From NCBI GenBank assembly GCA_964481205.1, contig CAYZYE010000002.1, positions 3,532 to 67,531 of the forward strand: a stretch of 64,000 nt of DNA, in the 5' to 3' direction. Below are positions 2,542-49,368 of the stretch, piece by piece (positions within the stretch are counted from its first letter, which is position 1; every line of letters starts with the position of its first letter). The stretch comes from an uncultured Anaerolineae bacterium (GTDB lineage Bacteria; Chloroflexota; Anaerolineae; JAFGEY01). The notes beneath the pieces were generated by a model. That model worked only from the letters and a program-made list of their open reading frames with translations. It was not told the DNA's origin and made no database searches. The translations under genes and the position numbers were made by a program.

Positions 2542-2562
2542 TCCCCGCCTCTGCATTTTGCC

Positions 2563-2691
2563 TAGGGCTGTTCAATTCTAATTCGTGACTAAAGTCACCG
2601 CTGGTGAGGACTCGTCGCCGTAGGGGGACGACCAGCCAACGGCTCACCCAACGCGGTTTCAACCGCTGGATTGTAGAATTGAACAGCCCTG
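2563..2691. mobile_element. MITE-like repeat, family 1, copy 1 (short form). Terminal inverted repeats are CAGGGCTGTTCAATTCTAA ... TTGTAGAATTGAACAGCCCTG
   Basis: Near-identical copies occur at 29438..29600 and 49029..49201. It is flanked by the direct repeat GCATTTTGCC, a TSD-like duplication. Confidence 0.7.
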
Positions 2692-2697
2692 GCATTT

Positions 2698-2726
2698 TGC
2701 CAAAGCGCACCCAGGCGAGTATACTT
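2698..2726 (+). promoter_or_regulatory. Sigma70-like promoter candidate (TTGCCA-17-TATACT) for the 2770..10080 glycosyltransferase operon
   Basis: Hexamers read directly. An AAGAGG RBS precedes the ATG at 2770. Confidence 0.3.
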
Positions 2727-2769: not shown

Positions 2770-5004
2770 ATGTTTACCGTAATATACCTTACCATATTGC
2801 TCTGCATCGACCTGGCGATCGCCTTGTTGCCGGCCGGCGATTGGCGCGCCGCGCTCGCCTTTGTGTTGCTGTGGGTCATGCCCGGCTATGCCTGGGGCCG
2901 GGCGCTCAAAAATCGCTGGCTGATCGGAATGGGCATTGGCGTTGGCGGCAACGTGCTGTTGATGTTGTTGCTCCATTACTGGCCCGGCCCGATCTCGTTT
3001 GGGCCGGCGCTGATCCTGTTTTCGCTATCCGCCTCGCTCCCGTTGTCGATGCGCCGCGTCGCGCCCAAAACGCCCCGAATCTCGCCTTACCTCATTGCCG
3101 TGCTACTCATCGGCGCATTGTTCCGGCTGCCCAACCTCGGCTACAGCGAATTTCAGGGCGACGAGGGAATCATTATGGTTCGCGCTGCCGCCGCGCTCAC
3201 CGGCGACGACGCCGAATTGTTTTTGCACCAAAAAGGGCCCGTCGAAATCTTGCTGCCGATGGCCGCCTGGACGCTCGGCGGCGCGCTCGACGAGTTTTGG
3301 GCGCGGTTGCCCTTTGCCTGGGCCGGTCTGCTGGGGCTGGCAACGATATTCGAGTTGGGACGGCGCTGGTTTGGCCCGGCCGGCGGGCTGGTCGCCGGGC
3401 TGCTGCTGGCGATCAATGGGTTTCACGTCGCCTTTGGCCGCATCGTCCAGTACCAGGATGTCGTGGTCTGGATGGGCTTGTTATCGCTCCTCGTCCTCGA
3501 CGAGTACCGCGTGCAGCGGCGACGGTGGGCGCTGCTGCTGGGCGCCGCTTTCCTGGCCGCCGGCGCGCTGGCCCATTACGACGCCATCCTCTTTGCCCCG
3601 GCCGCGGCCATGCTCGCCCTGCGCTGGACGCCGGGGCAACGATGGCGGTGGGTCGAGATCAAAGCGGGGCATTACCTCTATCCCTTACTCGTTGGTCTGA
3701 CAATCTTGGCAGTGTTCTATGTGCCATTCGTGCTCGATCCCAACTTTGGCAAGACCGCCAGCAACCTCGCCGGGGGGCGTGTGCGCGGCGGCCTGCATTT
3801 CAACGCCGGGCAAGCCTGGACAATGAGCACCGTCTACAATTCGAGCTATTACGTGATCGTGCTGCTGGCGCTGGCTCTGGCCTCACTGTGGGCGTGCAAA
3901 TCGCTGCCCCAGACGTGGTACGCCTGGGCGCTTTTTGCCGCGCCGTTCTTTTTCTACCTGATCATTGTTTTCGACCCGCGCACGCATCTCTACACCTGGT
4001 ACCCCGGCGCGGCGCTGCTCGCCGGCGCGGCCGCCGCCGGCCTGTGGAAACGCCTTCGCGGCGCAACCTGGCGCCGGGGTGTAATGACCGTGAGCGCGTT
4101 GATTTACATTCTCTTTGCCGGTTATACCTGGATAATGTTTATCGATCACCAGCCCGAATACCAGCGCACCTGGCCCGAAAACAAACGCCGCCTGTACTGG
4201 ACGACATATACCGCCATGCCGGTCTATGGACGTTTTGGCTTTCCGCACCGCGCCGGCTGGCACGCGATCGCCGCGCTGATCGCCGAGGGCGTGATCGAGG
4301 GGCGATATGCCAGCAACGAAGAACAGGAAATCACCGACTTTTACACCAGGCAAACCCCGCGCACGCACTGCGCCAAACCCAATGTGTACATTGTTGCCGA
4401 GCGGGTACAAGATCGAATCCGCATCGACTGGGACGAGCTGGAACGCGATTACACCCTGGCCGGCGTGGTCACGGCCTTTGGCGAGCCGCGCATCCGCTGG
4501 TACACGCCCGGCGACGTCGCCGAGGTGCTGCGCGTCGACCAGGCCGATTATCGCCAGTGGTGGACGCCGGAACAGGTCGCGCCGCCGGCCGCGCGCGGCC
4601 AACATCGCGTGCATTACGTGCTCGACGACCAGATCGAGTTACTCGGCTACGACCTGCGCGCCGGTCAGGCCAGGCCGGGCGGCTGGTTCGAGGTGACGCT
4701 GTATTGGCGCGCGTTGACGCCGCTGACGCGCAACAGCCAGGTTTTTGTCCACCTCTACGACGGGCAAACGCTGTGGGCGCAGCACGACGGCGCGCCAGAA
4801 TGCGCCGTCATGCCGACCACGCGCTGGGAGCCGGGGCAGGTGATCCCCGACCCGCACCTGGTTATGATCCGGCCCGACACGCCGGCCGGATCGATGTCGG
4901 TGCTGGTGGGAATGTACGACCTGCTGACCCTGGAACGACTGCCCACACCGGGCATGGTCAATAACCTCATTCCTCTGACCGAGATCGAGATTCAAGATGA
5001 GTGA
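2770..5004 (+). CDS. GT39/ArnT-like membrane glycosyltransferase (GT-C) with a C-terminal domain
   Basis: About 12 hydrophobic helices. An ArnT/PMT-type motif (YSEFQGDEGIIMVRAAAALTGDD) is present. The C-terminal ~110 aa are shared with the other paralogs. Confidence 0.7.
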   Translation: MFTVIYLTILLCIDLAIALLPAGDWRAALAFVLLWVMPGYAWGRALKNRWLIGMGIGVGGNVLLMLLLHYWPGPISFGPALILFSLSASLPLSMRRVAPKTPRISPYLIAVLLIGALFRLPNLGYSEFQGDEGIIMVRAAAALTGDDAELFLHQKGPVEILLPMAAWTLGGALDEFWARLPFAWAGLLGLATIFELGRRWFGPAGGLVAGLLLAINGFHVAFGRIVQYQDVVVWMGLLSLLVLDEYRVQRRRWALLLGAAFLAAGALAHYDAILFAPAAAMLALRWTPGQRWRWVEIKAGHYLYPLLVGLTILAVFYVPFVLDPNFGKTASNLAGGRVRGGLHFNAGQAWTMSTVYNSSYYVIVLLALALASLWACKSLPQTWYAWALFAAPFFFYLIIVFDPRTHLYTWYPGAALLAGAAAAGLWKRLRGATWRRGVMTVSALIYILFAGYTWIMFIDHQPEYQRTWPENKRRLYWTTYTAMPVYGRFGFPHRAGWHAIAALIAEGVIEGRYASNEEQEITDFYTRQTPRTHCAKPNVYIVAERVQDRIRIDWDELERDYTLAGVVTAFGEPRIRWYTPGDVAEVLRVDQADYRQWWTPEQVAPPAARGQHRVHYVLDDQIELLGYDLRAGQARPGGWFEVTLYWRALTPLTRNSQVFVHLYDGQTLWAQHDGAPECAVMPTTRWEPGQVIPDPHLVMIRPDTPAGSMSVLVGMYDLLTLERLPTPGMVNNLIPLTEIEIQDE

Positions 5005-7585
5005 GCCAGACGCGCGCAAGCACATCGAACGGGGTAACAACCCGCCGGGTCGCGCTGCGAACGCATTTTACAATAAATCTCGTATATTCATCAACACACA
5101 CTGGCCCGACCTGGCGGTCTTGATCGTGTACATTGTCCTCAGCCTGGCCATGTGCTGGCCGCTGCCCGCGCAGTTTGGCGCGCGTCTGGCGGGCGCGCAC
5201 TCGGACGCGCGCGTGTTTCAATGGAACAACTGGTGGATCAAGCAGGCCGTGTTGGCGCTAAAAAACCCAATGCGCACCGGCGCCATCTATTACCCCTCCG
5301 GCGCCTCGCTGTCGAGCCACAACACCAATTGGGTCAGTTCGCTGATCGCTTTGCCCCTCGATCTGCTTTTTGGCCCGGTGGCAGCCTACAACCTCACCTT
5401 TTTGCTCACCCTGTTCCTCGCCGCTTTTGCAATGTACCTGCTGGTGCGACACCTGACCCGGCAGCGCGGCGCGGCGCTGGTGGCCGGGCTGATTTTTGCC
5501 TTTTTCCCCTACCACCTCTCCGGCAACTGGGACGGGCAAATGAACCTCGCCAACATCCAATGGCTGCCCTTGTTCGCGCTCTTTTGCCTGCGCACGGTGC
5601 GCCGGCGCAGATGGCGCGACGCAGTGTGGGCCGGCATCTTTTTGGCCCTGTCCGGCCTCGACTGCCTGTTCTTCCCAATCTTTGCGGGCATGTGGGCGCT
5701 GATCTATGCGCTCTATGTGTTGTCGTTCGAGCGGCGCGCGCTCGACCGGCGGCTGTTCAAATTGGGCGGCGCCGGCGCGCTGGTCGCCCTGACGCTGCTC
5801 GCGCCGGTCATGATCCCGGCGCTGGCTGACGCCCGGCGCGGTTCGACCGAATCGGCGCTCAACTATTACGCCACGGAAAAATCGACCGACCTGCTGGCCT
5901 TTGTGCTGCCCAGCACACAGCACCCATTGCTGGGACGGCTCGTAGCCCCGATCTATGCCGGATTCCAGCACTGGCGTCCGGCGTTTCTGGGCGTAACGCC
6001 GCTGCTGCTGGCATTGTGGGGCCTGCTGCGCGGGCGCAAAAAAGCCGTCTTGTGGGGCGCGGCGCTGCTGTGGTTTGCGCTGCTGTCCCTGGGTACCACC
6101 TTGACCATTCAGGGCGTCGAATACACAAAAGTACCGATGCTTTACGATATTTTAACCAAATGGATTCCGGCGCTCAAGATCATCCGGCAGGCCAGCCGGT
6201 TCAACATCATGGTCATGTTTTCGCTGTCCGTCCTGGCAGGGCTGGGCTGCGCCGATCTGTGTGCGCGACGACACGGCGTCATCGCCGGCGCACTTGGGGC
6301 GATCATTTTGTTCGAGTACCTGGCCTGGCCCTGCCCCACCCTGCCCGCCGAGGTCTCGCCATTTTACACCCAACTGGCGCAAGAGACGGGCGATTTTGCG
6401 ATCCTCGAACTGCCGCTCGACGACTTTTACTCTCGCCGTTCGCTCTATGCGCAGACGATCCACGGCGCCAAATTGGTCAACGGCTACCTGGCCCGCGTCC
6501 CCGCCCACGCGCACGATTTTGTCCAGGGCAACGCGCTGCTGAAAAAGCTGTTCATCCGCATGGAGGTCGATCCCCGCCTGATCGACCTCGAACGCGAGAT
6601 CGGCCTGCTGCGCGCCAACGGCATCCGCTATGTCGTCATCCAAAAGCAGCCGCTCCCACCGCACCCGGCGGTCGAGGCCGGCGTGCAGGCCGGGTGGCGC
6701 GAGTTGTTCGGCCCGGACGTGTTTTACGAGGACGCGGACATTGCCGTCTACCGGCTGACTGCGCCCCGGCTGCCGCCCGCCGAGGCCGGCAAGCCGGTCA
6801 ACGACGACCTCGCGCTGGTCGAGGTGCAAACGCGCCGCGTCGAGGCGGCCGGGCGGCAGTGGCTGCGCGTCGATGTTTTGTGGAGCGCGCGGCAAAAAAT
6901 GACCCGCGATTACCGTTGCCAATTGTCTATCTTTGATGGTCAAGGAATTGAAACGACGTTCGACGATCTGATCTCGCCGCGTTTCCCCACCTCACGCTGG
7001 ACGCCGGGGCTGCTCGTCGCCGAACGCTATGCGTTGCCGATCCCGGCCGCGCTGCCGCCGGGCGAATACCGGCTGGCGATGACGCTTTCGGATGGCCGGC
7101 AAGAGACGGCATATACGACGTCGATCGTCGCGCCGCCAGAGGCGACATCGCTCAGTCCGGCGCTCGACGAGATGCAGGCCAGCGCCGACGTCACCTTTGC
7201 CGGCCGGCTGTGGCTGATCGGCTATACGGCGGCGCAGGACGGCGGGCAGCTCAAACTCGATCTGTACTGGCAGGCGCTGCGGGCCATGGCGGTCGATTAC
7301 AAAATGTTTGCGCACCTGATCGACCCCAACGACGATGCGATTGTCGCGCAGAGCGATTGGATGCCGCGCGACTGGTCTTATCCCACCTCATTGTGGGACC
7401 GCCGGGAAATGTTCATCGACCGGGTTGTGTTGGATGTCGGCGGCGTTGCCCCGGGCCAATACCGGCTGGCCCTGGGCGTGTACCGGCCGGGCGGTGATCG
7501 CCTGACGGCGGTGGACGGCGCGGGGCGCGAGATCGCGGACCATCGCGCGCTCATGGCGCAAATGGTCGAGGTGCGAGCGCCATGA
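4997..7585 (+). CDS. Polytopic membrane protein, putative GT-C glycosyltransferase, carrying two tandem copies of the family C-terminal domain
   Basis: The ATG at 4997 overlaps the upstream stop (ATGA). Hydrophobic N-terminal half. Two repeats of the W-rich ~100 aa domain at the C-terminus. Confidence 0.6.
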   Translation: MSEPDARKHIERGNNPPGRAANAFYNKSRIFINTHWPDLAVLIVYIVLSLAMCWPLPAQFGARLAGAHSDARVFQWNNWWIKQAVLALKNPMRTGAIYYPSGASLSSHNTNWVSSLIALPLDLLFGPVAAYNLTFLLTLFLAAFAMYLLVRHLTRQRGAALVAGLIFAFFPYHLSGNWDGQMNLANIQWLPLFALFCLRTVRRRRWRDAVWAGIFLALSGLDCLFFPIFAGMWALIYALYVLSFERRALDRRLFKLGGAGALVALTLLAPVMIPALADARRGSTESALNYYATEKSTDLLAFVLPSTQHPLLGRLVAPIYAGFQHWRPAFLGVTPLLLALWGLLRGRKKAVLWGAALLWFALLSLGTTLTIQGVEYTKVPMLYDILTKWIPALKIIRQASRFNIMVMFSLSVLAGLGCADLCARRHGVIAGALGAIILFEYLAWPCPTLPAEVSPFYTQLAQETGDFAILELPLDDFYSRRSLYAQTIHGAKLVNGYLARVPAHAHDFVQGNALLKKLFIRMEVDPRLIDLEREIGLLRANGIRYVVIQKQPLPPHPAVEAGVQAGWRELFGPDVFYEDADIAVYRLTAPRLPPAEAGKPVNDDLALVEVQTRRVEAAGRQWLRVDVLWSARQKMTRDYRCQLSIFDGQGIETTFDDLISPRFPTSRWTPGLLVAERYALPIPAALPPGEYRLAMTLSDGRQETAYTTSIVAPPEATSLSPALDEMQASADVTFAGRLWLIGYTAAQDGGQLKLDLYWQALRAMAVDYKMFAHLIDPNDDAIVAQSDWMPRDWSYPTSLWDRREMFIDRVVLDVGGVAPGQYRLALGVYRPGGDRLTAVDGAGREIADHRALMAQMVEVRAP

Positions 7586-10080
7586 GCAGACAAGGCGAAA
7601 TTTTTGTCGCCACGGCGCTGCTGGCGATCATGTTTGCCCTAATGATCACCAGCGCCGTGCAAAAATCACCCACCTATGACGAACAGGTTTATATCTCGCG
7701 CGGTTACGCCTTTGTCAAACGAGGCGACCTGCACATCCTGGTCGGCGAGCCGGTGCTGCTCAACGCGCTCAACGCGCTGCCGCTGCTGGCGCTGCCGGGC
7801 GTCCGTCTGCCCACCGGCCAACCGGCGTGGGCGGGCGACAATTTTCACCCCATCGCCGAGGCGTTCATGTGGCAGGTCAACGCCAACGCCGATCAAATGC
7901 TGTTCCTGGCCCGCGCGCCGACGATGCTGCTCGCGTTGCTGCTGGCCGTTTTTGTCTACCGCTGGGCGCGAGAGGCGTTCGGTCGCGCGGCGGCGCTGCT
8001 GTCACTGGCGCTGTGCGTGTTCGACCCCAACTTGCTCGCCCACGGGCGGCTGGCCGCCACAGATCTCGGCTCGACGGCGCTCATTTTCATCTGTACCTAT
8101 TGGCTGTGGCAATTGCTGCGCCGGCCGTCCTGGGGCAACGTGCTGTGGAGCGGCTTTTTTTTCGGGCTGGCGCAGGCCGCGCGATTTTCGGCGCTGCTCT
8201 TTGCGCCGGGCTTTGCCCTGCTCTTTGCCGCGCGCGTCCTCTCGCCGGCGCCTTTTGCGCTGCCCCGGCGCGGCGCAAGCGTCGAGGTGCGGCCAACGCC
8301 ATCCCCCCAGCCCCGGTGGAAGCGCCTGGTCTGGCTGGCGGCGGCCGGCGCGCTGATCGTGCTGATCGGTTATGCGACTTTGTGGGCTGTACACGGCTTT
8401 CAATGGACGCCGGTCCGTGGCGCGACGACCTGGCCCGTGCCGGCGGCATCTTTGTGGGAACAATTGCGCTACATTTCGGGGCGTCTGTCCGGCGACAAGG
8501 ATCCCGTGACCGGTTTTTTGCTGGGCGAGTTGTATGTGGGCGGCAAATGGCAATATTTTCCGGTGGCGTGGCTGCTAAAAACCCCGCTGCCGACATTGGC
8601 GCTGTGGCTGACCGCCGTTTTCGGCAGCCTCCGTTCTGCGCTGCGACGCGCCGGACCGGATCGCCGGCCGGGGTTGGCCCTCTGGCTGCCCCCGCTGCTC
8701 TATTTTTTGATTACCTTGAACAGCAAACTCAATCTTGGTTATCGCTACATTTTGCCCGTGCTGCCTTTTGCCATCGTGCTGGCCGGGCGGTGTGGAGCAT
8801 GGGCGGTCGAGCGCATCTCGACGCTGGGCGGAGAACGTCGCGCGCTGGCGACATCGTTGGCCGCGCTGGCGGTCGGCTGGGCGGTGTGGAGCGGGATCGA
8901 CATTTGGCCGCATTATCTGGCCTTTTTCAACGAGCTGGCCGGCGGCCCCGACGGAGGCTGGCGCTACCTGGTCGATTCAAACCTCGATTGGGGCCAAGAC
9001 CTCAAACTGCTCAAACGATGGGCAGACGAGCATCACGTCGCCAAGATCAAGCTGGCTTATTACGGCGAGGGCGTCCCCGCGTATTATGGGCTGGACATAG
9101 AGCCGCAAATTTGCTCCCCCGACCGCTGGCAGCACCCCCTGTACCACGATCTCTATTTCGACGACCCCGCGCCCGGCGTATACGCGATCAGCGCCAACCT
9201 GCTTCAGGGGCGCAATCTGGCGCGCCCGGAGACCTATCGCTGGTTCCGCGAGCGCGCCCCGGTGGACAAGGTGGGGTATTCGATTTTCATTTACGAGGTC
9301 CCCCGGTGGGGAGATGAGGCAGTGATCGCGCTGTCGGGGTTGTCGCCGCCGGACATTCGCGCCGAGGATTACGCGCTGCTCGGCGGCAATGATGTGCGCG
9401 TGCTGTGGTTCGACGCCGCGCGGTCGGCGCTTTTTCCGTCCGGCGATCAGCCCACGTTCTCGTTTGTGCCTGGTGAAATGGAAACGCCCCCGGCGCTCGT
9501 ACATTTGGGGGCAGGCGCTTTGCTTCGCTCAAGCACACTCCGCGACGGCCGCCCGCTGCGTATTTTCAAAAATATAGATCGTGTTGATGCGCTACGTTAC
9601 ATTGATTCCCTTGATTTCGCGGCCTGGTATATGCCCGCGTCGACATTTGCGCCCGGCGATCCGGCCGGGCATGGCGCGCCGTTGGGCGCGCCGGTGCGGT
9701 TTGGCTGTGTCGAATTGCTGGGCTATGAATCGAGCCAAAGCAATGCGCTGCCCGGCGAGAGGTTGACGTGGATCACGTACTGGCGCGTCGTCGAGCCGGC
9801 AGCAGAGCCGCTGACGCTGTTTGTCCACCTGCTCGACGCCGGCGGCGTCAATCGCGCGGGCGAGGATCGCGGGGACGTATGGTATGATAACTGGCGGCGC
9901 GGCGACGTATTTGCGCAGCTAGAAGAGATTCAGCTGCCGGCCGAGTTGGCGGCCGGACGTTATCAAGTCGAGATCGGCTGGTACACGCCGAGGACGATGG
10001 CGCGGCTGCCGGTGCTCAAAGAGGGGCAAGAGATCGCCGACCGGATATTGTTGGCGCCGGTGACGATAGCCGACCGGTGA
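7582..10080 (+). CDS. GT39 family membrane glycosyltransferase, paralog of 247..2541
   Basis: ATGA overlap with the upstream gene. Conserved blocks (DEQVYISRGYAF, WRYLVDSNLDWGQDL). Same C-terminal domain. Confidence 0.75.
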   Translation: MSRQGEIFVATALLAIMFALMITSAVQKSPTYDEQVYISRGYAFVKRGDLHILVGEPVLLNALNALPLLALPGVRLPTGQPAWAGDNFHPIAEAFMWQVNANADQMLFLARAPTMLLALLLAVFVYRWAREAFGRAAALLSLALCVFDPNLLAHGRLAATDLGSTALIFICTYWLWQLLRRPSWGNVLWSGFFFGLAQAARFSALLFAPGFALLFAARVLSPAPFALPRRGASVEVRPTPSPQPRWKRLVWLAAAGALIVLIGYATLWAVHGFQWTPVRGATTWPVPAASLWEQLRYISGRLSGDKDPVTGFLLGELYVGGKWQYFPVAWLLKTPLPTLALWLTAVFGSLRSALRRAGPDRRPGLALWLPPLLYFLITLNSKLNLGYRYILPVLPFAIVLAGRCGAWAVERISTLGGERRALATSLAALAVGWAVWSGIDIWPHYLAFFNELAGGPDGGWRYLVDSNLDWGQDLKLLKRWADEHHVAKIKLAYYGEGVPAYYGLDIEPQICSPDRWQHPLYHDLYFDDPAPGVYAISANLLQGRNLARPETYRWFRERAPVDKVGYSIFIYEVPRWGDEAVIALSGLSPPDIRAEDYALLGGNDVRVLWFDAARSALFPSGDQPTFSFVPGEMETPPALVHLGAGALLRSSTLRDGRPLRIFKNIDRVDALRYIDSLDFAAWYMPASTFAPGDPAGHGAPLGAPVRFGCVELLGYESSQSNALPGERLTWITYWRVVEPAAEPLTLFVHLLDAGGVNRAGEDRGDVWYDNWRRGDVFAQLEEIQLPAELAAGRYQVEIGWYTPRTMARLPVLKEGQEIADRILLAPVTIADR

Positions 10081-10619: not shown

Positions 10620-12089
10620 ATGTTTGCCCGCCTGAACCTCGAACGGCTGGTCACGGCCATCGTACTCGTTGCCGTGTTTGCGATGGCCGTGCGTGTGCCG
10701 GCCAGCCCGGACACATGGTGGCACTTGCGCTGCGGCGAGGTGCAGTGGCAAACCCGCGCGGTGCTCAAATCCGATCTGTTTTCGCACACCGCGCAAGGCG
10801 CGCCCTGGGTCAACCAAAGCTGGCTGCCTCAATTGGCAATGTACGGCCTGTGGACACTGGGCGGCTTTCCAGCCCTGGCCCTGGCCGTCGCGGCCCTGGT
10901 TGCCGGCGCGGTCGCCCTGATTCTGGCCGCCTCTGAGGCGCCGGGGCGTTACGGTTACCTGTGGCGCGCCCTGGTCGTCATTTGGGCCGCCATCTCGACG
11001 GGGCGCGTGTGGGCGGCGCGCCCGCACCTGATCTCCTTTTTGCTCACCGCCGCGTGGCTCTATTTACTCGATCGACACCGCGCGGGCAAGCCGAAGGCGC
11101 TGTACTGGCTGCCAGGGCTGATGGCGCTGTGGGCCAACAGCCACGGCGGTTATATCGTCGGCTTTTTGCTGCTCTGCGCCGAGATCGGCGGCCAGGTATT
11201 GGACTGGCTGCCGGCGCGCCGAACGAGTTCACTCTGGCCGCGCATCAAGCCGTTCGTCCTCCTGACTCTGCTCGCGGCACTGGCGGCATCGATCAACCCA
11301 CAGGGTCTTGGTCTGCTCTTGTTTCCCTTTCAGACCTTGAGCAGCCCGGCTCAACAAAACTATGTCGCCGAATGGGCTTCGCCCGACTTTCACGCCGCCG
11401 ATATGCTGCCTTTTTTGGGGCTGCTTTTAGCCACGTGGAGCGCGCTGGTGTTCAGCACCCGGCCGGTCAACGGCGCCGAGTGGCTCCGGCTGCTGGGCTT
11501 TTCGGCGATGGCGCTCCGTTCGGGCCGCTATCTGGGATTGTGCGCCCTGGTCATGGCGCCACTGTTGGCGCAGCACGGCGCCGCCGCGCTGGCGCGATTT
11601 GGGTTGCCCGGCGGCAACAATGTTCGATCGCGGCCAACGCGAGGGCATCCGGCGATCAACTGGCTGCTGCTCGCGCTCATTGTAACCGCGTCCGTCCTCA
11701 AAATCGCCCGTCCCCTCGACGCCGCGCTGATCGAACGCATTCACCGGCAGTCCTTTCCCGTCGACGCCGTTGACTATATGCAGCAACGCCAACTGCCCGC
11801 CACGCTGTTCAACGAATACGCCTGGGGCGGATACCTGATTTGGCGTCACATTCCCGTCTTTATCGACGGGCGCGCCGACCCTTATGGCGATGCGCTGATC
11901 ACTGCCTATCGCAACGCCATTTCGGCACAGCCGGGCTGGGAGCAAACGCTAGATTCATCCGGCGTCCACACGGCATTGCTCGCCGCCAACAGCCCTCTGG
12001 CAATGGTGATGGAAACAAACGCCGGTTGGAAAAATGTGTACCGGGACGACATCGCCGTCCTTTATGTAAAAACACTCGCCCACCGTTGA
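10620..12089 (+). CDS. Polytopic integral membrane protein of unknown function, possibly GT-C-like
   Basis: About 490 aa, mostly hydrophobic helices. The start was chosen at the first ATG after the ridA stop. Confidence 0.55.
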   Translation: MFARLNLERLVTAIVLVAVFAMAVRVPASPDTWWHLRCGEVQWQTRAVLKSDLFSHTAQGAPWVNQSWLPQLAMYGLWTLGGFPALALAVAALVAGAVALILAASEAPGRYGYLWRALVVIWAAISTGRVWAARPHLISFLLTAAWLYLLDRHRAGKPKALYWLPGLMALWANSHGGYIVGFLLLCAEIGGQVLDWLPARRTSSLWPRIKPFVLLTLLAALAASINPQGLGLLLFPFQTLSSPAQQNYVAEWASPDFHAADMLPFLGLLLATWSALVFSTRPVNGAEWLRLLGFSAMALRSGRYLGLCALVMAPLLAQHGAAALARFGLPGGNNVRSRPTRGHPAINWLLLALIVTASVLKIARPLDAALIERIHRQSFPVDAVDYMQQRQLPATLFNEYAWGGYLIWRHIPVFIDGRADPYGDALITAYRNAISAQPGWEQTLDSSGVHTALLAANSPLAMVMETNAGWKNVYRDDIAVLYVKTLAHR

Positions 12090-12131
12090 TCGGAGACAAA
12101 CGCTGCGGCATAAAATACTTTATGTCAAAAT

Positions 12132-12163
12132 TGAATAGACAACGTAGGCGTTTGATGATATAA
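12132..12163 (+). promoter_or_regulatory. Promoter candidate TAGACA-17-TATAAT upstream of the FHA cluster
   Basis: Read directly from sequence. Confidence 0.3.
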
Positions 12164-12226
12164 TCGAATCCAGTGGCTACCCTGGGGGAGCTGATCGAGA
12201 TCATCCAGCCATTTTGGGAGCGCCAG

Positions 12227-13444
12227 ATGGCCCAGTACAAGTTCAAATGCCGCCCTTGCCCGCCCCACATCCGCCGACAATGTATCCAAGAAGCGCACGT
12301 CTCGCCTGCGGCAAAACGGATCATCATCCAATCATTTGAAGCAAGAACAGACACGCAAGCGACCTGGGATCTGCTGCAACACAATTGCCTGCTCGTCCGC
12401 CGCGAAAACATGCCCACCATCGCGCCGGTGTCACGCAAGGGAGGTTTGCGAGATCGCCTTTTTGGCCCAGAGCCGCCTCCTGCCCAGGAAGACAAAGCAT
12501 CTCAACAACCGCCCCCCAGCCAGCAGCTGCCCGTGGTCAAACCATACCAGCCGCGTTCCCCGGCTGCTGAACCCACAACGTCTCAGCCGACCACTCAAAC
12601 AGTCTCGCAGACCAGGTTCATCCGCACCCAACGCCCGGCCGATCGCGCCAGAACACCTACGCCTCGGACGGTTCATTTGCCCAGGCCGCAAACACCCGTT
12701 TCCAAGGCGCCAATCCTGCGCTATCCGCGCGCCCGGCAGCCGCACGTCGTTGCCAACGAACAACCCGGACCGAGAATACTGGTCTCGCAGGTGATCGGCC
12801 ACCGCATCTCGCTGCCCACCGACGGCGAGTTGGTGCTGGGGCGCTTTGATCCGTTCACCAAAATCAAGCCCGACATTGACTTGACATTTGAAGACCGGAT
12901 CACCAGGGGCATTTCGCGCCGCCACGCCCAAGTGATCGGTTGGCAAGGACACTATGCGATCAAGGATTTGGGCAGCACCTTTGGCACCTGGGTCAACGAC
13001 AAACGGTTGTCGCTAGAACAAAAACAACCCTTGCGCATCGGCGATATGATCCGGCTGGGTAATTGTGTCCTATTTCTGGACCGTCCGCCAAACCTATGGA
13101 AAACGCCGTTGTCTCTGGAACGCTGCTTTTTCTATTCCACGTTTTCGGGACAATACCTGGCCATCCCGGCCAAACCGGCGATCGTCATCGGGCGCGCCGA
13201 CGCCGGCCTGGGGTTCAAGCCGGACATCGATCTCGGCGCAGAAGAAGAAGCGGCGTCAGCCGTCTCACGACGACATGCCAGACTACTTTGGCGAAACGGG
13301 CAACTCGTCGTCCAAGATTTGGGCAGCACACAACACACCGCGATCGATGGACGCCAGGTGCCCATCGGCGCCAAGACGCCCATCTTGCCCGGACAGCATT
13401 TGTGGTTGGGGGGATACACCATCGCTTTTGATATGGTCGAGTGA
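12227..13444 (+). CDS. Twin FHA-domain protein with an N-terminal Cys-rich motif and a Pro-rich linker
   Basis: Two FHA-like segments (GRxDP...DIDL...SRRHA...GSTxGTWVN...GD.I.LG). The start is at ATG 12227 (GGGAG RBS). The track's alternative start is at 12173. Confidence 0.8.
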   Translation: MAQYKFKCRPCPPHIRRQCIQEAHVSPAAKRIIIQSFEARTDTQATWDLLQHNCLLVRRENMPTIAPVSRKGGLRDRLFGPEPPPAQEDKASQQPPPSQQLPVVKPYQPRSPAAEPTTSQPTTQTVSQTRFIRTQRPADRARTPTPRTVHLPRPQTPVSKAPILRYPRARQPHVVANEQPGPRILVSQVIGHRISLPTDGELVLGRFDPFTKIKPDIDLTFEDRITRGISRRHAQVIGWQGHYAIKDLGSTFGTWVNDKRLSLEQKQPLRIGDMIRLGNCVLFLDRPPNLWKTPLSLERCFFYSTFSGQYLAIPAKPAIVIGRADAGLGFKPDIDLGAEEEAASAVSRRHARLLWRNGQLVVQDLGSTQHTAIDGRQVPIGAKTPILPGQHLWLGGYTIAFDMVE

Positions 13445-13495
13445 TCTCGCCCCTACTGAAACACAACACACCATATTCCATTGAGGAGCATCACG

Positions 13496-14320
13496 ATGAA
13501 AGGCAGCACAGCCGCTATCGGCAACATGCCCCCAAGAATCATTTGGGAGCCAGACAACAAAGAAATGATCTTGATTTCGGGCGGTGAATTCTTGATGGGA
13601 CGAGACGACGGGCAGGATGACGAACGTCCGGCGCATACAGTTTATGTATTGCCATTCTACATCGACCGTTATCCTGTTACGCAACAAGAATACCATCGCT
13701 TTGTTCAGGCAACGGATCATCCGATCCCAAGGTACGATGTCGAGTGGGTCGATTCGAGCGCCTATAATTGGGACTCGGATACCCGCACGCCGCCGCCGGA
13801 CAAACTCGACCATCCCGTTGTCCTGGTCACCTGGGGCGACGCGCTGGCTTACAGCCAATGGGCGCAAAAACGCCTGCCCACCGAAGCCGAGTGGGAACGC
13901 GCGGCGCGCGGCACAGACGGACGTCGTTGGCCCTGGGGCGACAAACTGAAAGAGGAAAATTGCAACACCCGTTACCTCGATCTCGGCCAGACCACGCCCG
14001 TTCACCAGTTCTCCCCGCAAAGCGACACCCCTGAAGGAGTCGGAGATCTGATCGGCAACACCTGGGAGTGGACCGGATCACTTTACCGGCCATACCCATT
14101 TGACGAGAACGACGGGCGGCAGGACCCCAGCGCGCCGGGGTGGCGCGTCTTGCGCGGGGGGTCGTGGCTCAACGATTTTTCACAGGCCAATTCGACCACC
14201 CGGCTCGACGGCGACTTTTTGTTCTATACCAACGTCGGCTTTAGGTGCGCCATCTCGGTCAGCGTGGTCCAAGATGCGCTGTACGCAGCGTTTATCGATG
14301 AATGTCAAAGTTCATCTTGA
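13496..14320 (+). CDS. Formylglycine-generating-enzyme (FGE/SUMF1) domain protein
   Basis: FGE-sulfatase domain motifs (HPVVLVTWGDALAYSQWAQKRLPTEAEWERAARG, FRCA). AGGAG RBS. Confidence 0.8.
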   Translation: MKGSTAAIGNMPPRIIWEPDNKEMILISGGEFLMGRDDGQDDERPAHTVYVLPFYIDRYPVTQQEYHRFVQATDHPIPRYDVEWVDSSAYNWDSDTRTPPPDKLDHPVVLVTWGDALAYSQWAQKRLPTEAEWERAARGTDGRRWPWGDKLKEENCNTRYLDLGQTTPVHQFSPQSDTPEGVGDLIGNTWEWTGSLYRPYPFDENDGRQDPSAPGWRVLRGGSWLNDFSQANSTTRLDGDFLFYTNVGFRCAISVSVVQDALYAAFIDECQSSS

Positions 14321-14371
14321 TCCACTCAGACTCTGGTTCACGCCTGACCCAGTCGATCCTGGAGTGCATAC

Positions 14372-15160
14372 ATGCCGCAATACCTCAAATATCCAGACCC
14401 AATTCTGCCCCAACCGCGCGACATAGAGCCGCCTGGGCCGAGAATTCTCGTCTCCCAGGCGCTGGGACATCGCATTTTGCTGCCCGAAGATGGCGAACTT
14501 GTGCTGGGACGCTTTGACCCGACCTATAAAGTCAAACCGGACATCGATCTGACGGCTGAAGACAAAGCCGCGTGGGGCATTTCTCGACACCACGTGCGGC
14601 TTGTCGGCTGGCGGGGGCAATATGAAATCGAGGATATGGGGAGCAGCAACGGCACCTGGGTCAACGATGAACAAATCGAGTCCGGGCGCAAAGTCCCGCT
14701 CACGGTGGGCGACCAGGTACGCCTGGGCGGCAGCATTTTCTATTTCGACCGCCCGCCGACGATCTGGAAAATGCCCATCACCCGGCAACAAGGCTTTTTC
14801 TATGTCACCTTTACCGGACACTATTACCCGCTGCCCGGCCAAAAGACGATCCTGGTTGGACGTTCCGACTCTAAACTCGGTTTCAAGCCCGACATTGCGC
14901 TGAATGACGAAGACGAGTCGATCACCGTTGTCTCGCGCAAACACATCAAATTGACGCTTCGCGGCGAACAATACATGGTCGAGGATATGGGCAGCTCGTT
15001 TGGCACCAGGTTGGACGGGACCAAAGTCTACGCCGGGATCAAAATCCCCCTCCATCCAGGACAGCACTTGTGGCTGGGCGGATACACACTGGCCTTTGAT
15101 GTGATCGCCAAGCCGACCGCCCCGCCATCGACAGGCGCAAAAACAGCCCCACTGCTCTAG
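14372..15160 (+). CDS. Twin FHA-domain protein, paralog of 12227..13444 without the N-terminal extension
   Basis: Collinear similarity to the C-terminal 260 aa of 12227..13444 (PGPRILVSQ.LGHRI.LP.DGELVLGRFDP). Confidence 0.8.
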   Translation: MPQYLKYPDPILPQPRDIEPPGPRILVSQALGHRILLPEDGELVLGRFDPTYKVKPDIDLTAEDKAAWGISRHHVRLVGWRGQYEIEDMGSSNGTWVNDEQIESGRKVPLTVGDQVRLGGSIFYFDRPPTIWKMPITRQQGFFYVTFTGHYYPLPGQKTILVGRSDSKLGFKPDIALNDEDESITVVSRKHIKLTLRGEQYMVEDMGSSFGTRLDGTKVYAGIKIPLHPGQHLWLGGYTLAFDVIAKPTAPPSTGAKTAPLL

Positions 15161-15195
15161 TGGGGCTGTTTGGTGGGCCTTGCCGCGCGCCGTGC

Positions 15196-15810
15196 TTATT
15201 CTTCGATCCCCGCCAAATCGATCGCTGTGGCCGCAATCGGCGCCAAAGTTGTCAACATCTCTAAATCTCTGGCGTCAAAGGGCTGCCCGGAGAACTTGTT
15301 GACCACTTCGATCACGCCCAACATGATCCCGCGACTGATCAACGGCACGCAGGCCAAAGACTGGGTGCGAAATTGAAACGTACTGTCAACGGTCGACGAA
15401 AAACGCTCATCCTGAACAATGTCGTTGGCAATCACCGGCTCGCGATGCTCGACCACCCAGCCGGCGATCCCTTGCTCCCGCCGCATGCGGTGTCCTTGCA
15501 ACTTGGCCGCAAGCACGCCGCGAACCAACACAAAAACCAACTCGTCGGTATCGGGATCGAGCAAAATCAAAGACCCATCGGCCGCATCGACCACGCGCAA
15601 GGCCTCATACATGATCCGGTCCAACAAAGGCTGAAGCTGCTCTCGCGTATCCAAATTGGCAATCACCTGCTGCAACCCACGCACCGACTTGAGACAACCG
15701 CGCAAAGCGGCATTCTCTTCATCCAACTCTTGATTGTCTTGCTGCAACCGTTGATTTTCATCTTGCAGAAAACGCAATGTGGTAGACACAGCGCCAATGC
15801 CATCTGCCAT
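15196..15810 (-). CDS. GAF-domain protein with an N-terminal coiled coil
   Basis: GAF-like core. The start was set at MADGIG so the gene abuts the stop of the amidase gene. Confidence 0.65.
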   Translation of the reverse strand: MADGIGAVSTTLRFLQDENQRLQQDNQELDEENAALRGCLKSVRGLQQVIANLDTREQLQPLLDRIMYEALRVVDAADGSLILLDPDTDELVFVLVRGVLAAKLQGHRMRREQGIAGWVVEHREPVIANDIVQDERFSSTVDSTFQFRTQSLACVPLISRGIMLGVIEVVNKFSGQPFDARDLEMLTTLAPIAATAIDLAGIEE

Positions 15811-15811
15811 C

Positions 15812-16618
15812 TCAGCCTCCCTGTCGATACGTCCCCTCGATAAAACACTTGATCCCGTTGACAATGCCCGTCGCCACCCAAGCCGACCTTTTTGTCAACA
15901 AAACCCGGTCGGCGCGCATAAACCCAATCTCTATGATCGCGCCCGGCGTCTCGGGCGCAATTTCATAAAAAGCATGATATTCGGTCATATCATACGTAAT
16001 ACTGTTCTGGTGAAATGGAAGCCCTGTTGCTTCCTGATACCTGGCGATCAAACAAGAAACCAGGCGATCCTCGATATCGGGCACCAGGCTGGATGAAACC
16101 CGCGCCACCTTGAAACCCGACGCCTCGGCCACATTGCACGAATCGGCGTGAATCGAAACCAAAGCCGCGGCCTCGTACCCGTCCAGTTTGGGCGAAAACT
16201 CGGCCAACATTTCGGCATTGTACCCCGAAAGCGCCAGTTGAGAAACGACACGCTGGGCGACGTCGAGATTGATCTCGACCTCTTGCAGCCCATCCGGGCA
16301 AACAGCGCCGACATCGTTCTGCCAGTGTCCAACCACAATGCCGATCTTGAGCGGCCGCTGCTGCGCGGCAACCGAGGTTTGGGTCCTGGCCGGCAACGGG
16401 GTCATCAATGGCACGGCGGTCGGCGCCGGGATCATCGGCTGCGGCGTTTTCAGCGCCACCAACTGCGTCGCCGTCATCGAGTCGGCCACAGCCGCCGGAT
16501 TCTGCACCATCCAGGCCACGCGCAAACCCAAATAAATGATCGCCAGCAAGACAACAACCAGCGCGGCAATCAAAATCCGCTGCACGCCCTCGAGCATATT
16601 TCGACGAATCAACGACAT
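15812..16618 (-). CDS. N-acetylmuramoyl-L-alanine amidase (Amidase_3 family) with an N-terminal TM anchor
   Basis: Amidase_3 signature segments (KIGIVVGHWQND..., SIHADS, IEIGFM). Confidence 0.8.
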   Translation of the reverse strand: MSLIRRNMLEGVQRILIAALVVVLLAIIYLGLRVAWMVQNPAAVADSMTATQLVALKTPQPMIPAPTAVPLMTPLPARTQTSVAAQQRPLKIGIVVGHWQNDVGAVCPDGLQEVEINLDVAQRVVSQLALSGYNAEMLAEFSPKLDGYEAAALVSIHADSCNVAEASGFKVARVSSSLVPDIEDRLVSCLIARYQEATGLPFHQNSITYDMTEYHAFYEIAPETPGAIIEIGFMRADRVLLTKRSAWVATGIVNGIKCFIEGTYRQGG

Positions 16619-16645
16619 CTCTCAACCTGACCCCAATAAAAGGCT

Positions 16646-17779
16646 CTATTGTCCGGGCAAAAACGAAATTGGATTGCGCAAAACGCCCTTGTACCTTATC
16701 TCGAAATGCAAATGCGGCCCGGTCGAACGACCGGTGCTGCCGCGCGCGCCGATCAGCTGCCCGCGCTCGACCGACTCACCGGCATTGACATAAAACCCGT
16801 ACAAATGCGCGTAATATGTCACAAACCCATTTCCATGATCGATGACCACCAGATTGCCGTAACCATTGCTGTCCCAGGCGGCGTACATGACCACCCCGGC
16901 GTCCGAGGCAACGACGCCTTCGCCGTGCGCGCCGGCAATGTCGATCGCCCGATGAAGCTCCCAGTATCCCTGCGAAATATACCCGCCGGTCGGCCAAACC
17001 CAGTTGCCCGTCCCATGCTGGGCATCGGCAGGCGCCGAACCGCCAAAAGAATGGTGCAAACGCGGCTCGAACGTCTTGACGCCGCCGGGCACGATCAGCT
17101 TTTGCCCCGGCTCAACCAGCGGAGCGTCCGAGTCCAGACCATTGTACTCGCAATCGACGATCGCCGACGCCGGAACCTGATAGCGGGAGGCAATGTCGGC
17201 CAACGTTTCGCCGTCCGCAACCGTGTGATAAACGCCATCCACGGGCAAGATGGTCAATTCCTGCCCCGTATAGATCAAATCAGGTGCCTCTTCCAGCTCG
17301 TGATTGGCCCACAGCAGCGTGTTCGGTTTCAACCCAAAACGCCCGGCAATGGTCAAAAGATTGTCGCCGGCGGCCACGGTATAGGTGATCACCCCTTTGC
17401 GCGCGCGTTCCGGGATGATCGTCTGCGGCACCGCCGCAAGGAACAACCGCTGAACCAGGGTCACGCGGACAGGGGCAGCCGGAAGCGGTCGCTCGGCCTG
17501 CGTGCGCAGTTCTACCTTGCGTCCCAAACCATGCACATCCAGCGACGGCGTGCTAGTAGCCTGCTGTGTCGGCGCCCCGGTCGGATAAGCGACGTCAACG
17601 GGCGGCAAAAGCCGGGTCAGGTCAAGCCTGGGCCACATCACGGCGCACGCGATCAATAAAAGCAGGCCAATATGAAAAAATCCACGCGCCAGCAAAGGAT
17701 AAAAGGCAGACCTCATCCCCCGCAAGCGCGTGTTGAGCCAATCGAGACCGGCATAAAATGGCGGTTTACGCTCCACCAT
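16646..17779 (-). CDS. LysM-domain M23 family metallopeptidase
   Basis: Two LysM-like segments plus an M23 motif (HRAIDIAG...GYGNLVVIDHGNGFVTYYAHL...GSTGRSTGPHLHFEI). Confidence 0.85.
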   Translation of the reverse strand: MVERKPPFYAGLDWLNTRLRGMRSAFYPLLARGFFHIGLLLLIACAVMWPRLDLTRLLPPVDVAYPTGAPTQQATSTPSLDVHGLGRKVELRTQAERPLPAAPVRVTLVQRLFLAAVPQTIIPERARKGVITYTVAAGDNLLTIAGRFGLKPNTLLWANHELEEAPDLIYTGQELTILPVDGVYHTVADGETLADIASRYQVPASAIVDCEYNGLDSDAPLVEPGQKLIVPGGVKTFEPRLHHSFGGSAPADAQHGTGNWVWPTGGYISQGYWELHRAIDIAGAHGEGVVASDAGVVMYAAWDSNGYGNLVVIDHGNGFVTYYAHLYGFYVNAGESVERGQLIGARGSTGRSTGPHLHFEIRYKGVLRNPISFLPGQ

Positions 17780-17798
17780 AACTTTGGGTTTCCTTGGG

Positions 17799-19082
17799 TT
17801 AGACCGCCCCCTTGTTCAACATTGCCAAAAATTCGGCATTGTTTTCGGTGCTTGATATCCGATCGATCAAAACAGAGGTCGCATCGGCCATATCATACCC
17901 GGCGCCCTTTGGAGGCGATGTCATCAATTGAGCCAACATCCGTCTCATTAACCATACCCTAGATAGGGTACTTTTGTCAAGTAGCAATTCTTCACGCCGG
18001 GTGCTGGAACGGTCAATATCAAAAGCAGGATAAATCCGGCGCTCGGCCAGGCGCCGATTCAGATGCAACTCCATGTTGCCCGTACCCTTGAACTCTTCAT
18101 AGATCAGATCGTCCATGCGGCTGCCGGTATCGACCAGACAAGTCGCCACGATCGTCAGACTGCCGCCCTCCTCGATGTTCCTCGCCGCGCCGAAAAAATG
18201 CTTGGGCGGATAAAGCGCCGCCGGGTCCATACCGCCGGACAGGGTGCGCCCGCTGGGCGGGACAATCATATTATAAGAGCGCGTCAGGCGGGTGATCGAA
18301 TCCAACAAAATCACGACATCGCGCCCATCCTCGACCAACCGCTTGGCGCGATTCAAAGCCATTTCGGCGACGCGCACATGATCGCGCTCCGGCTCGTCAA
18401 AAGTCGAGGCCACAACCTCGGCGTCGACAGAGCGATCCATATCGGTGACTTCTTCGGGGCGTTCGCCGATCAGGCAGACCATCAAATGCACGTCATTATA
18501 ATTGGCCGTAATGCCATTGGCAATCTGTTTCAAGATCATCGTCTTGCCGGCTTTGGGCGGCGACACGATCAGCCCTCGCTGACCGCGGCCAATCGGCGAC
18601 ACCAAATTGATCATCCTCGGCGCGATCGGGTGTTTTCCCGTCTCCAAATCAAACCGCTCGTCGGGAAAAATGGGGGTCAACCGCTCGAAACGTGGACGTC
18701 GCTTGGCCTCTTCGGGGTCCAGGCCGTTCACCGCGTCGATGCGCAACAGGCCAAAATACTTTTCCGTGTCTTTGGGCGGGCGCACCTGACCGATGACCAT
18801 ATCGCCGGTGCGCAGACCAAAGCGCCGAATCTGGGACTGCGAGACGTAAATATCTTCCGAAGAGGGCAAAAAACCTCTGGGGCGCAAAAAACCCAGGCCT
18901 TCATCCACAACATCCAGGATACCGCCGCCAAAATTGTATCCCTGCTGTTCGGCCTGGGTGCGCAGCAAGCGCATAATCAAATCATATTTTTTGAGCCGGC
19001 TAAAGCCCGAAGTGCCCATCTCGCGGGCCAGATCGCGCAAATCTTGTAATGTTTTTAAATCCAATTCACCAAAGGATAACAT
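17799..19082 (-). CDS. rho: Transcription termination factor Rho
   Basis: Full-length match to Rho architecture with a Walker A motif ([11 protein letters not shown]). GGAG RBS. Confidence 0.95.
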
Positions 19083-20265
19083 AAAACAACTCCATACTAA
19101 TTGGCGGTCACGGTCATTGCGAACCCGCCGTACCGCGCCATAACTTCAAAAAAACAGGAACGCCAAAACGTGATCGGGCGCACCGCGCCCAACAAAGTCT
19201 CAATGGGGATAACTTGGCTGTGGCTAACGAGTTTTTTCTTGGAGCAAATTTCAACTTTTGGCTCTCTAATCCCTGACTTGGGTCAACAACCCGGCCCAAG
19301 ACAATGAAAACCATGATTGTTTGAAACGTCAGGAAGGCTCTGTTGGTTCCGGTTTAGTTGGGTCAGGCTTTGAGAACCAAAACGGGGCTGAGTCAAAGGG
19401 GCTTGCCTGGATCAAGATTCGCAGATTCTGCCATTCAAGAAAACCGCCTGGAAAAAAGTAGGATGTCGCAGAATGCTGCAATTTGCAAGAACGCAAACAG
19501 GTATCGTATAATGCCTGTATTATATCATCTTTTCCAAGACACGTCAAATGTCTATTATTTTTCTCAAAATAACACCAATTTCATCTCCCGCGCCAGAACC
19601 CACCGGCGAAATCAGGTTTACTTAACTTGCCTTAAATTTTGACCGGGTTTGCAACGCGCTGCAAACCGCTTCTCGCTCGTAGCTGTAGGTTATATTGGTA
19701 AAAAAAATCGAACATGTGGTACTAGAAACATCAAGGCAACACCGAGCGGGTGAAAACAACTTGCCAACTCGAAACGATTTTGCTACAATACACACGTTCA
19801 TCTCCTGAGCGTCTAGCCACCTGACCTGGACAAACCAGCCGGGCACATGCCCTAACTCTCAAATGTCCCTGTGCGCAGCGACATCTGCTGCATCAAGGCC
19901 TGAGAATTTGGGCGCTGTTTTATTTCTTGCATTACATCTGACAACCTTGTTTCGACGGCTCAACCTCATCGCTTTGGGCTAGGTGGCGAACGAGAATTCA
20001 GTGTATTGCCTCTTGTGCCGTTCTGGTGTAACCTCTCAATACAAGCTCATTTGGCCTGTGTACCTAACCCGTGAGATTTGTCTTTTGCGATAATTTTTCG
20101 CCCGACTTGACCGGGGCAGGTTCGCAATGAACATTCAACCACAGCAATGCGCCACACGACCACCGCAAGATCGGCGGGGCAGCGATGATTTTGCCCTGTT
20201 CGTCTGGCCTGCATCGAGTCTTTTATATCCAGGGGAGGAAAAGACAACCTTGTACCGGGAGCAAA
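19083..20265. promoter_or_regulatory. Candidate oriC / dnaA upstream region
   Basis: 1.2 kb with no coding potential between rho and dnaA. DnaA-box-like 9-mers TGGGGATAA and TGTGGCTAA lie at 19203-19225. An AT-rich stretch at 19500-19620 is a possible DUE. Promoter-like TTGCAA-18-TATAAT (19482-19511) and TTGCCA-17-TACAAT (19761-19789). Confidence 0.4.
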
Positions 20266-21657: not shown

Positions 21658-22364
21658 GCGTTTCCAGAAAAATAACTACCCTGCGTTGCTCTCGCCAGAT
21701 TTGGCAATCCAAGCCGCGCATTCTGGAATAATTTCAAGAGTTATGCGGTTTGTGTTTGAGCCTTTCTAGAACGAAACTTGGGTAATCTGTCATTCTGAGC
21801 CAGCCGTCGCAGGCGGCGCAGTGAAGAATCTTGTGGCTTGAATTTGACATACAAAAAGAGATTCCCTTCGACTGCGCTCAGGGCAGACTTTGTCGCTCCG
21901 CTCCTCACAATGACGGTCCCAGAAAAGTCTTGCTCTAGTACCAGAAAGTCCCAACCATCGAGTTATTGGATAGAACGAGTTGTTTTTTGATATATTTCAG
22001 GCGCAAAACGCCCTCTATGACTCGAACCGCGTAACTCCGGCCAAGATTATCACGCTTGCAATGTGACTTTCTGGCTTGGCGTTTCTATTTGATGCAAGGA
22101 TACCATAGGCATACTGGATACACACCCAACGTGGTTCGGATTAAGGCTGCTCTAGCCGCGTAATCCAAACCGGGCACCCCGCGAAATCCTCCCAGGAGAC
22201 CGCTGAAAAACCCAAGATTAACCAATGACGCAGAGATCATCTTGTATTTGCAAATATCAACAATACTACTCGATGTTTTGTTTCTTTGCGTTCTCTGCGG
22301 TTGGCGGATGCACTGGGAGTTTTTCAGCACACTCTCAGGTCGCTTGACCGGCAAGGACAAGATA

Positions 22365-29377: not shown

Positions 29378-29437
29378 TGGGTCTCCTGTACAACACATGG
29401 TGAAAAGCGCCAAACTTGAGATCAGTACAGGGCTGTT

Positions 29438-29600
29438 CAATTCTAATGTGTGACTAAAGTCACCGCTGGCGGGCTGAAGCCGGGCGTCCCACCTGCGTGG
29501 ACGCCACCGTCGGCGGGGCCTCGTCGCCGTAGGGGGACGACCAGCCAACGGCTCGCCAAGCGCGGTTTCAACCGCTGGATTGTAGAATTGAACAGCCCTG
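29438..29600. mobile_element. MITE-like repeat, family 1, copy 2 (long form with an internal GGCGTCC...GGACGCC hairpin)
   Basis: Same TIRs as copy 1. Flanked by a 9-bp direct repeat AGATCAGTA on both sides. Confidence 0.75.
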
Positions 29601-29741
29601 AGATCAGTATAACATCAAACCCCACGCGGGTCAAAAAAACAATGACCTACTGCCGGGCAAAAATGCGAAACCTTGCTAGCCCCTTACACGTAATACCATT
29701 ACAGTGAAACACATGCCCAAGTTATCAAGGAGTCATTCGAA

Positions 29742-48938: not shown

Positions 48939-49028
48939 GCCCGGTTTGATATTCCCCTTGTCAACGGGCTTGCAGTTGTGATACAATACAATTGGGTGTG
49001 TCTCAAACAAGTCAAGTTGGTAGGATAG

Positions 49029-49201
49029 CAGGGCTGTTCAATTCTACAATCCAGCGGTTGAAACCGCGCTTGGCGAGCCGTTTGCTGGTCGTCCCCCTAC
49101 GGCGACGAGTCCACGCCAGTGATGGCGTCCACGCAGGTAGGACGCCCGGCTTCAGCCCGCCAGCAGTGACTTTAGTCACAAATTAGAATTGAACAGCCCT
49201 G
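49029..49201. mobile_element. MITE-like repeat, family 1, copy 3 (long form, inverted orientation)
   Basis: Same TIRs. Flanked by a 10-bp direct repeat GGTAG(G/C)ATAG. It is inserted into a family 2 repeat. Confidence 0.75.
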
Positions 49202-49368
49202 GGTAGCATAGCCCCTCGTGGGCGCTTGATGGGCCACCCAGCGGGCACAAGTCCTTACACCAGAAGCGTGCTGCTTGCGCCGGACCGGCTCGCCGACGGG
49301 GATTTGACAATCCCCTTGGAGCGCAGCCGATGAGGGGCTATGCTACAGACGCCCAAATCATCTTGTGC
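49202..49368. repeat. Repeat family 2-related sequence, copy D, split into a long inverted pair (GTAGCATAGCCCCTC ... GAGGGGCTATGCTAC)
   Basis: Core motif present twice in opposite orientation, about 100 nt apart. Confidence 0.4.

Follow-up and report, generated by a model that had tools for sequence, protein, structure and literature searches.

Insertion sequences (IS) of the ISAs1 family are characterized by an inverted repeat of 14-22 bp that begins with CAGGG and by a 10-bp direct repeat (PMC11946415). The family member ISArsp11 has the left inverted repeat (IRL) CAGGGCTGATGCAAAGTCG (CAGGGCTGATGC...) and a 10-bp direct repeat (PMC6305408). MITEs are short (less than ~600 bp) and have no transposase open reading frame (ORF), and they carry terminal inverted repeats (TIRs), are flanked by target-site duplications (TSDs) of constant length and variable sequence, and occupy many sites. 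Here we analysed three related repeats in a window of 64 kb (the whole stretch of 64,000 nucleotides) from an uncultured Anaerolineae bacterium. The repeats show all of these MITE features together with those of an ISAs1 derivative, namely CAGGG repeats within the 14-22 bp range, a direct repeat of ~10 bp and ends common to transposase-encoding elements. With a probability of about 0.9, they constitute a short non-coding MITE family whose ends are identical to those of an ISAs1-family insertion sequence.

Results

Element copies in the window

Reading and alignment of the sequence showed related elements at all three places where the initial annotation had put copies of one MITE-like element. 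The copies are as follows.

MITE copy 1, 2563..2691, + strand: 129 bp, deletion form; IRL 2563-2580 with T as the first base; right inverted repeat (IRR) 2674-2691
MITE copy 2, 29428..29600, + strand: 173 bp, full form; IRL 29428-29445; IRR 29583-29600; internal hairpins at 29450-29463, 29483-29505, 29520-29540 and 29562-29575
MITE copy 3, 49029..49201, - strand: 173 bp, full form, in the opposite orientation to copies 1 and 2

The boundaries first given for copies 1 and 3 are correct, whereas a 10-base slip had placed the start of copy 2 at 29438 and shortened it to 163 bp. The 18-bp TIR of the family is CAGGGCTGTTCAATTCTA. The TIRs are perfect overall, as claimed, except that copy 1 starts with T (TAGGGCTG...) instead of C and is perfect over 17 nt only. 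The 17-nt core of the TIR, AGGGCTGTTCAATTCTA, occurs exactly six times in the window, forming three inverted pairs, against an expectation of 0.03 (the mean of 100 dinucleotide-preserving shuffles, none of which reached six). A GTGACTAAAGTCAC palindrome is common to the three copies, and the GGCGTCC-N9-GGACGCC hairpin described for the two long copies was found in both, with one loop difference in copy 3. BLASTN comparisons showed that copies 2 and 3 are 94% identical and that the window holds no further copies or fragments of the element. Copy 1 is a version of this element that lacks 44 internal bp, with the deletion junction located at a repeated CACCGCTGG. The length of the family members ranges from 102 to 173 bp, and there is no transposase ORF inside the element.

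Target-site duplications

Direct repeats of 9-10 bp lie beside every window copy, in agreement with the earlier description. They are given below by position, without strand.

Left TSD of copy 1, 2553..2562: GCATTTTGCC
Right TSD of copy 1, 2692..2701: GCATTTTGCC; overlaps the -35-like hexamer TTGCCA at 2697-2702
Left TSD of copy 2, 29419..29427: AGATCAGTA; 10 bp if G29418 and G29600 are counted
Right TSD of copy 2, 29601..29609: AGATCAGTA
TSD of copy 3, left on the + strand, 49019..49028: GGTAGGATAG
TSD of copy 3, right on the + strand, 49202..49211: GGTAGCATAG, with one mismatch

The initial annotation regarded copies without flanking repeats as evidence against a transposed element. Among the 18 complete testable copies of the window and the metagenome contigs described below, 15 carry a TSD of 9-10 bp (13 exact, two with one mismatch), the sequence of which differs at every insertion site. 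The remaining three (L079, L087 and L094) have none, and two of these three have decayed ends.

The two ends of the element differ in their outermost bases. The right-end terminal base is always G in the window copies and in L077-L107, and the outermost IRL base is C, T, G or A among near-identical copies of the same set (window positions 2563, 29428 and 49201). The T-ended subfamily comprises many copies with distinct TSDs; thus, the left terminal base seems either dispensable for transposition or changed during transposition. At a position adjoining the site of transposase cleavage, such variability would not be expected, and it counts against the explanation favoured here, a MITE mobilized by an ISAs1-family transposase.

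Ends shared with ISAs1-family elements

A scan of the 17-mer end against one genome per species gave at least 75 loci from many phyla, and the 18-nt end is identical across phyla. In L011, L022 and L051, two inverted 17-mers are positioned 1215-1231 bp apart with transposase ORFs between them. In these ORFs, the N-terminal half gave a match to NCBIfam NF033564 'ISAs1 family transposase' at 1e-36 and the C-terminal half at 1e-27; Pfam DDE_Tnp_1_assoc was matched at 8e-20, and the stop codon of the transposase is a TAG inside the right-hand repeat. Autonomous IS with the same TIRs, which the initial annotation had proposed to look for in the host genome, were recovered as 1.2-kb ISAs1 elements in other genomes, whose 18-nt ends are identical to those of the window element. 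The full-length element L022 is flanked by a 10-bp TSD with a single mismatch. Among the loci listed, tblastn showed an ISAs1 transposase adjoining this end in Bacteroidota, Desulfobacterales, Lentisphaeria and cable bacteria, and an uninterrupted ISAs1 transposase homologue of 372 aa exists (P0121).

The similarity is confined to the ends. For all of the at least 75 listed loci, the sequence in common with the window element is limited to the 20-21 terminal bases, and the plasmid collection contains nothing similar to it. The interiors of the recovered ISAs1 elements are unrelated to the GC-rich, hairpin-rich core of the window family, suggesting that the family is probably not a simple internal deletion of those elements. 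No ISAs1 transposase was found by tblastn in the 64-kb window, and none is encoded in 96 kb of contigs from the same metagenome. A repaired ISAs1 transposase used as the query gave 1537 homologues, none attributable to an Anaerolineae partner or to the host organism.

Short, GC-rich, hairpin-rich intergenic repeats with several internal hairpins could also be palindromic units of the REP/BIME type, for the spread of which a RAYT (IS200/IS605-like) transposase or recombination, and not a DDE transposase, would be responsible. However, REP elements are not known to possess long TIRs or to be flanked by TSDs. Both are present here, and the ends equal those of ISAs1 elements, leaving this origin with a negligible probability.

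Six diverged ISAs1 elements that share these ends encode their transposase in two frames, with the break at an A run: A9 in three elements and, ~50 nt further upstream, A8 in the remaining three. The sites are the following.

L011, 2940-3040: split-transposase site
L022, 6020-6130 (minus): split-transposase site
L039, 4900-5000: split-transposase site
L051, 1090-1200: split-transposase site
L024, 560-680: split-transposase site
L071, 3450-3550 (minus): split-transposase site

Uninterrupted homologues of 366-372 aa also exist, and ORF1-only products are common. Judged from the sequences, the frame split looks like programmed slippage, of which we know no description in the ISAs1 family.

Other short elements with the same ends

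Several other short elements share the ends of the window family.

L004, 4165-4357: 193 bp, same 18-nt ends
L008, 6577-6800: about 220 bp, same ends
L056, 6679-6892: about 220 bp, same ends
L027, 4036-4197: 161 bp, same ends
L048, 4647-4807: 161 bp, same ends
L047, 2655-2786: 132 bp, 9-bp TSD
L052, 4653-5115: 463 bp, same ends

The size groups further include L042 (with L008 and L056, about 220 bp) and L072 (with L047, 132 bp). Exact 10-bp TSDs flank L004, L008, L027, L048, L052 and L056. The 18-nt ends of these elements are identical or near-identical to those of the window family and their TSDs are likewise 9-10 bp long, but their cores are unrelated to the window core and their hosts are Bacteroidales, Prolixibacteraceae and other Anaerolineales. 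They have the appearance of MITEs that were born separately from the same IS lineage. The combination of the same ends and TSDs with different interiors indicates that this lineage has spawned miniature derivatives several times, the window family being one of them.

Copy number, deletion forms and spread

Metagenome contigs were scanned using 21 bases of the right subterminal region as the query, which gave 31 contigs, 30 of them from one sample. Two of the 31 are the window's own loci at 99.9-100% identity, indicating that the sample holds the same organism, and the element-bearing contigs probably all derive from one genome. Many contigs stop within the element, in line with the behaviour of a repeat at which assemblies break. 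An unpaired element end is present in 14 of the 31, most of these ends lying within ~250 nt of the contig end. The outer flanks on the right-end side, taken over the window and the metagenome contigs, comprise 33 distinct sequences and thus represent at least 31 distinct insertion sites. Together with the ISAs1-like ends and the TSDs, this number of sites bears out the proposal of the initial annotation that a non-autonomous element was inserted by a transposase.

Full-length copies are 89-99.4% identical and are grouped in subfamilies, with identities of up to 99.4% within a subfamily. The full form contains three internal direct repeats of (C)ACCGCTGG. In the 129-bp form (copy 1, L104 and L091), the segment between the first and the second ACCGCTGG repeat is lost, and in the 102-bp form (L090), the segment between the second and the third. 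The shorter forms arose by deletion between these internal repeats and then spread to new sites: the 129-bp form is found at several sites with different TSDs and thus still moved after the deletion.

Deletion between short direct repeats does therefore occur in the family, as would be needed if every copy were a separate relic of a full-length ISAs1 insertion that had lost its interior. However, the same non-IS core is present at more than 30 sites with 89-99% identity, which independent deletions would not yield, and this core has no similarity to the recovered ISAs1 interiors. Separate decay of full-length elements is accordingly a highly improbable origin of the copies, and dispersal of an already miniature element remains the preferred reading.

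Empty sites were reconstructed by removing the element and one TSD, and 17 of the 19 are not spanned by a coding-like open frame. The copies are thus intergenic, either by target choice or by loss of in-gene insertions. Copies 2 and 3 are also present, at unchanged positions, in two other assemblies of the organism. Look-ups for an empty site in a close relative through the YccF-like and the 288-aa genes gave only assemblies that carry the element or are broken by it.

Two adjacent or partial copies, or a ~60-bp pair of ends, were observed in L092 (1-246), L080 (12543-12646) and L099 (8-67). Nested or tandem insertion may account for them, as may faulty assembly.

Neighbouring genes and promoter-like sites

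Promoter-like sites were located near each window copy by matches to the consensus only.

Promoter-like TTGCCA-17-TATACT, 2697..2725, + strand: 10/12 match; upstream of the GT39 glycosyltransferase gene 2770-5004
Promoter-like TTGACC-17-TATACT with TG, 29606..29634, - strand: reads into copy 2 towards the TPR gene
TPR gene, 27470-29377, - strand: start taken from the gene call in another assembly, L108
Promoter-like TTGTCA-18-TACAAT with TG, 48958..48987, + strand: 42 nt upstream of copy 3

Copy 1 is located 22 nt past the stop of a PMT_2/GT39-like gene and directly upstream of the site at 2697-2725. Its right TSD overlaps the first hexamer of this consensus match, consistent with the overlap with a -35 noted in the initial annotation. 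In the relative L076, whose orthologue is 63% identical, the same intergenic region holds TTGACA-17-TATACT preceded by GATGATTT and has no insertion. This uninterrupted promoter region is the nearest thing to an empty site, in a relative as distant as 63% protein identity. Relatives of the GT39 glycosyltransferase beside copy 1 are 59-67% identical, and those with a source name are Anaerolineae. Four long ORFs follow one another on the same strand in this region (112-2541, 2770-5004, 4997-7585 and 7582-10080). The first two match PMT_2/GT39 glycosyltransferases, and in a relative there are three consecutive genes of this type.

The distance from the second hexamer of the minus-strand promoter-like site to the start of copy 2, further downstream, is six bases, and the copy lies 51 nt upstream of the TPR start as called in the other assembly, consistent with the position in the leader of the TPR gene previously described. 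The spurious N-terminal extension attributed to it was also seen, as the mechanical ORF runs to a TTG inside copy 2. The window at 27339-29237 contains repeats with a 102-nt period, which correspond to the 34-residue TPR units of this minus-strand gene (19 TPR_1 stretches). A separate DNA element at this position was considered and rejected, the repeats being TPR coding repeats.

Copy 3 ends 195 nt upstream of the next gene, which starts at 49396. A 37-nt motif occurs three times on the + strand of the window (39201-39237, 44107-44143 and 49321-49357) and consists of the hairpin GTCGCCC-NNNN-GGGGCGA followed by TGCTACARACGCCYAAA. Each occurrence is ~40 nt upstream of a gene start or likely gene start, and the genes that follow are unrelated (a GH38 alpha-mannosidase, a YjeF-type NAD(P)HX repair enzyme and a 288-aa protein). 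Rfam gave no match around the third occurrence. The G+C content of the window is 0.52-0.59 at 12001-24000 and 0.54-0.58 at 50001-64000, compared with 0.62-0.645 at 1-12 kb and 24-28 kb.

A promoter-like site was found by script within 60 nt of six of the 19 copies, or of seven when the site of copy 2, which had been removed by the 10-bp trimming, is included; the background is ~0.8 such sites per kb. Targeting of promoters was considered and rejected, since the enrichment is modest and can be explained by intergenic AT-richness. The three window copies contain no promoter-like or terminator-like site, leaving a role as a portable promoter or terminator unsupported. In copies 2 and 3, which are positioned between a promoter-like site and the start codon, the strong hairpin of the element would be carried into the 5' untranslated region.

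Fold of the element

Folding of the element, which the initial annotation had proposed as a check, showed that it is very stable on either strand, at -102.9 kcal/mol (z -8.4) and -98.4 kcal/mol (z -7.5) for the two strands. Such stability, and the location of copies 2 and 3, which follow promoter-like sites and have the same orientation with respect to the gene, would be expected if the repeats were structured-RNA genes or cis-elements (a small RNA or a 5' leader) that are conserved for their fold and not transposed. However, much of the stability comes from the 18-bp terminal stem, as in any MITE, and copies without whole hairpins still spread. Rfam gave no match in the window at the gathering score and none around copy 3 at E<=1. 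In the consensus fold of 19 copies, none of the 47 pairs is compensatory and the covariation term is +1.49 (positive), the copies being too alike for a strong test. A single structured-RNA gene would sit in a fixed context, which the initial annotation had held against a mobile element, but the flanks differ at every site (at least 31 different ones) and TSDs are present. Thus, with no Rfam match, no covariation, TSDs and varied contexts, nothing supports an RNA gene, and conservation for the fold is very unlikely to explain the repeats.

Discussion

The three window copies and their metagenomic relatives are best explained as MITE copies, which most probably were moved in trans by a DDE transposase of the ISAs1 family. 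A matching transposase would be present in the host genome now or would have been there recently, and movement would follow the usual DDE chemistry. The ISAs1-family transposase would bind the 18-bp TIRs and join both ends of the element to target DNA at a staggered cut of 10 nt (in some cases 9 nt), the repair of which would give rise to the direct duplication on either side.

For annotation, the element matters in two ways: it gives rise to false ORF extensions, as at the start of the TPR gene, and short-read assemblies are interrupted by it. For IS biology, it is a MITE family tied to ISAs1, a family with an unstudied mechanism. The active-looking short copies define the minimal cis requirements as the 18-bp ends, with variation of the left terminal base tolerated. 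The family has a use in annotation and provides naturally occurring minimal substrates for ISAs1 transposases. Putatively, insertions beside promoter-like sites could also change the expression of neighbouring genes.

A more far-reaching claim would be that this is the first described ISAs1-derived MITE lineage, that it is still active, and that it also acts as a mobile expression modulator and undergoes unusual end processing. We consider this claim unlikely. If it were true, insertion between a promoter and a start codon, as for copies 2 and 3, would add a hairpin of ~-100 kcal/mol to the 5' untranslated region, and the variation at the left terminal base would be a sign that ISAs1 transposases process the ends in an unusual way. 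The literature searched contained no paper describing an ISAs1-derived MITE, which is weak negative evidence. The repeats are a new MITE family of a well-known kind, that is, ordinary mobile DNA, and as such are not surprising.

Comparison with the ISAs1 family (ISAs1, IS1358, H-repeat/ISEc1, ISArsp11 and ISPmar4) showed that the window element likewise starts with CAGGG, that its 18-bp repeat falls within the 14-22 bp of the family, and that its TSDs of 9-10 bp match the 10-bp TSD of the family. The first eight nucleotides, CAGGGCTG, are the same as those of ISArsp11. The 18-bp repeat with this start and the TSDs thus fit the window element to the ISAs1 family. In contrast to the ISAs1 family, the window family has no transposase gene, is only 102-173 bp long and has a variable left terminal base. 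Comparison with described bacterial MITEs (Correia of Neisseria, RUP of Streptococcus pneumoniae, Nezha of cyanobacteria, MaeMITEs of Microcystis and the Tn3-derived TIMEs) showed that the window family is likewise small, non-coding, multi-copy and intergenic, with TIRs that match an autonomous element, TSDs and a strong hairpin potential (for the general definition, PMC2779907 and PMC4133298). However, the partners of those MITEs are of the IS630, IS4/IS1634, IS5 or Tn3 types and their TSDs have other lengths, whereas the partner of the window family is of the ISAs1 type.
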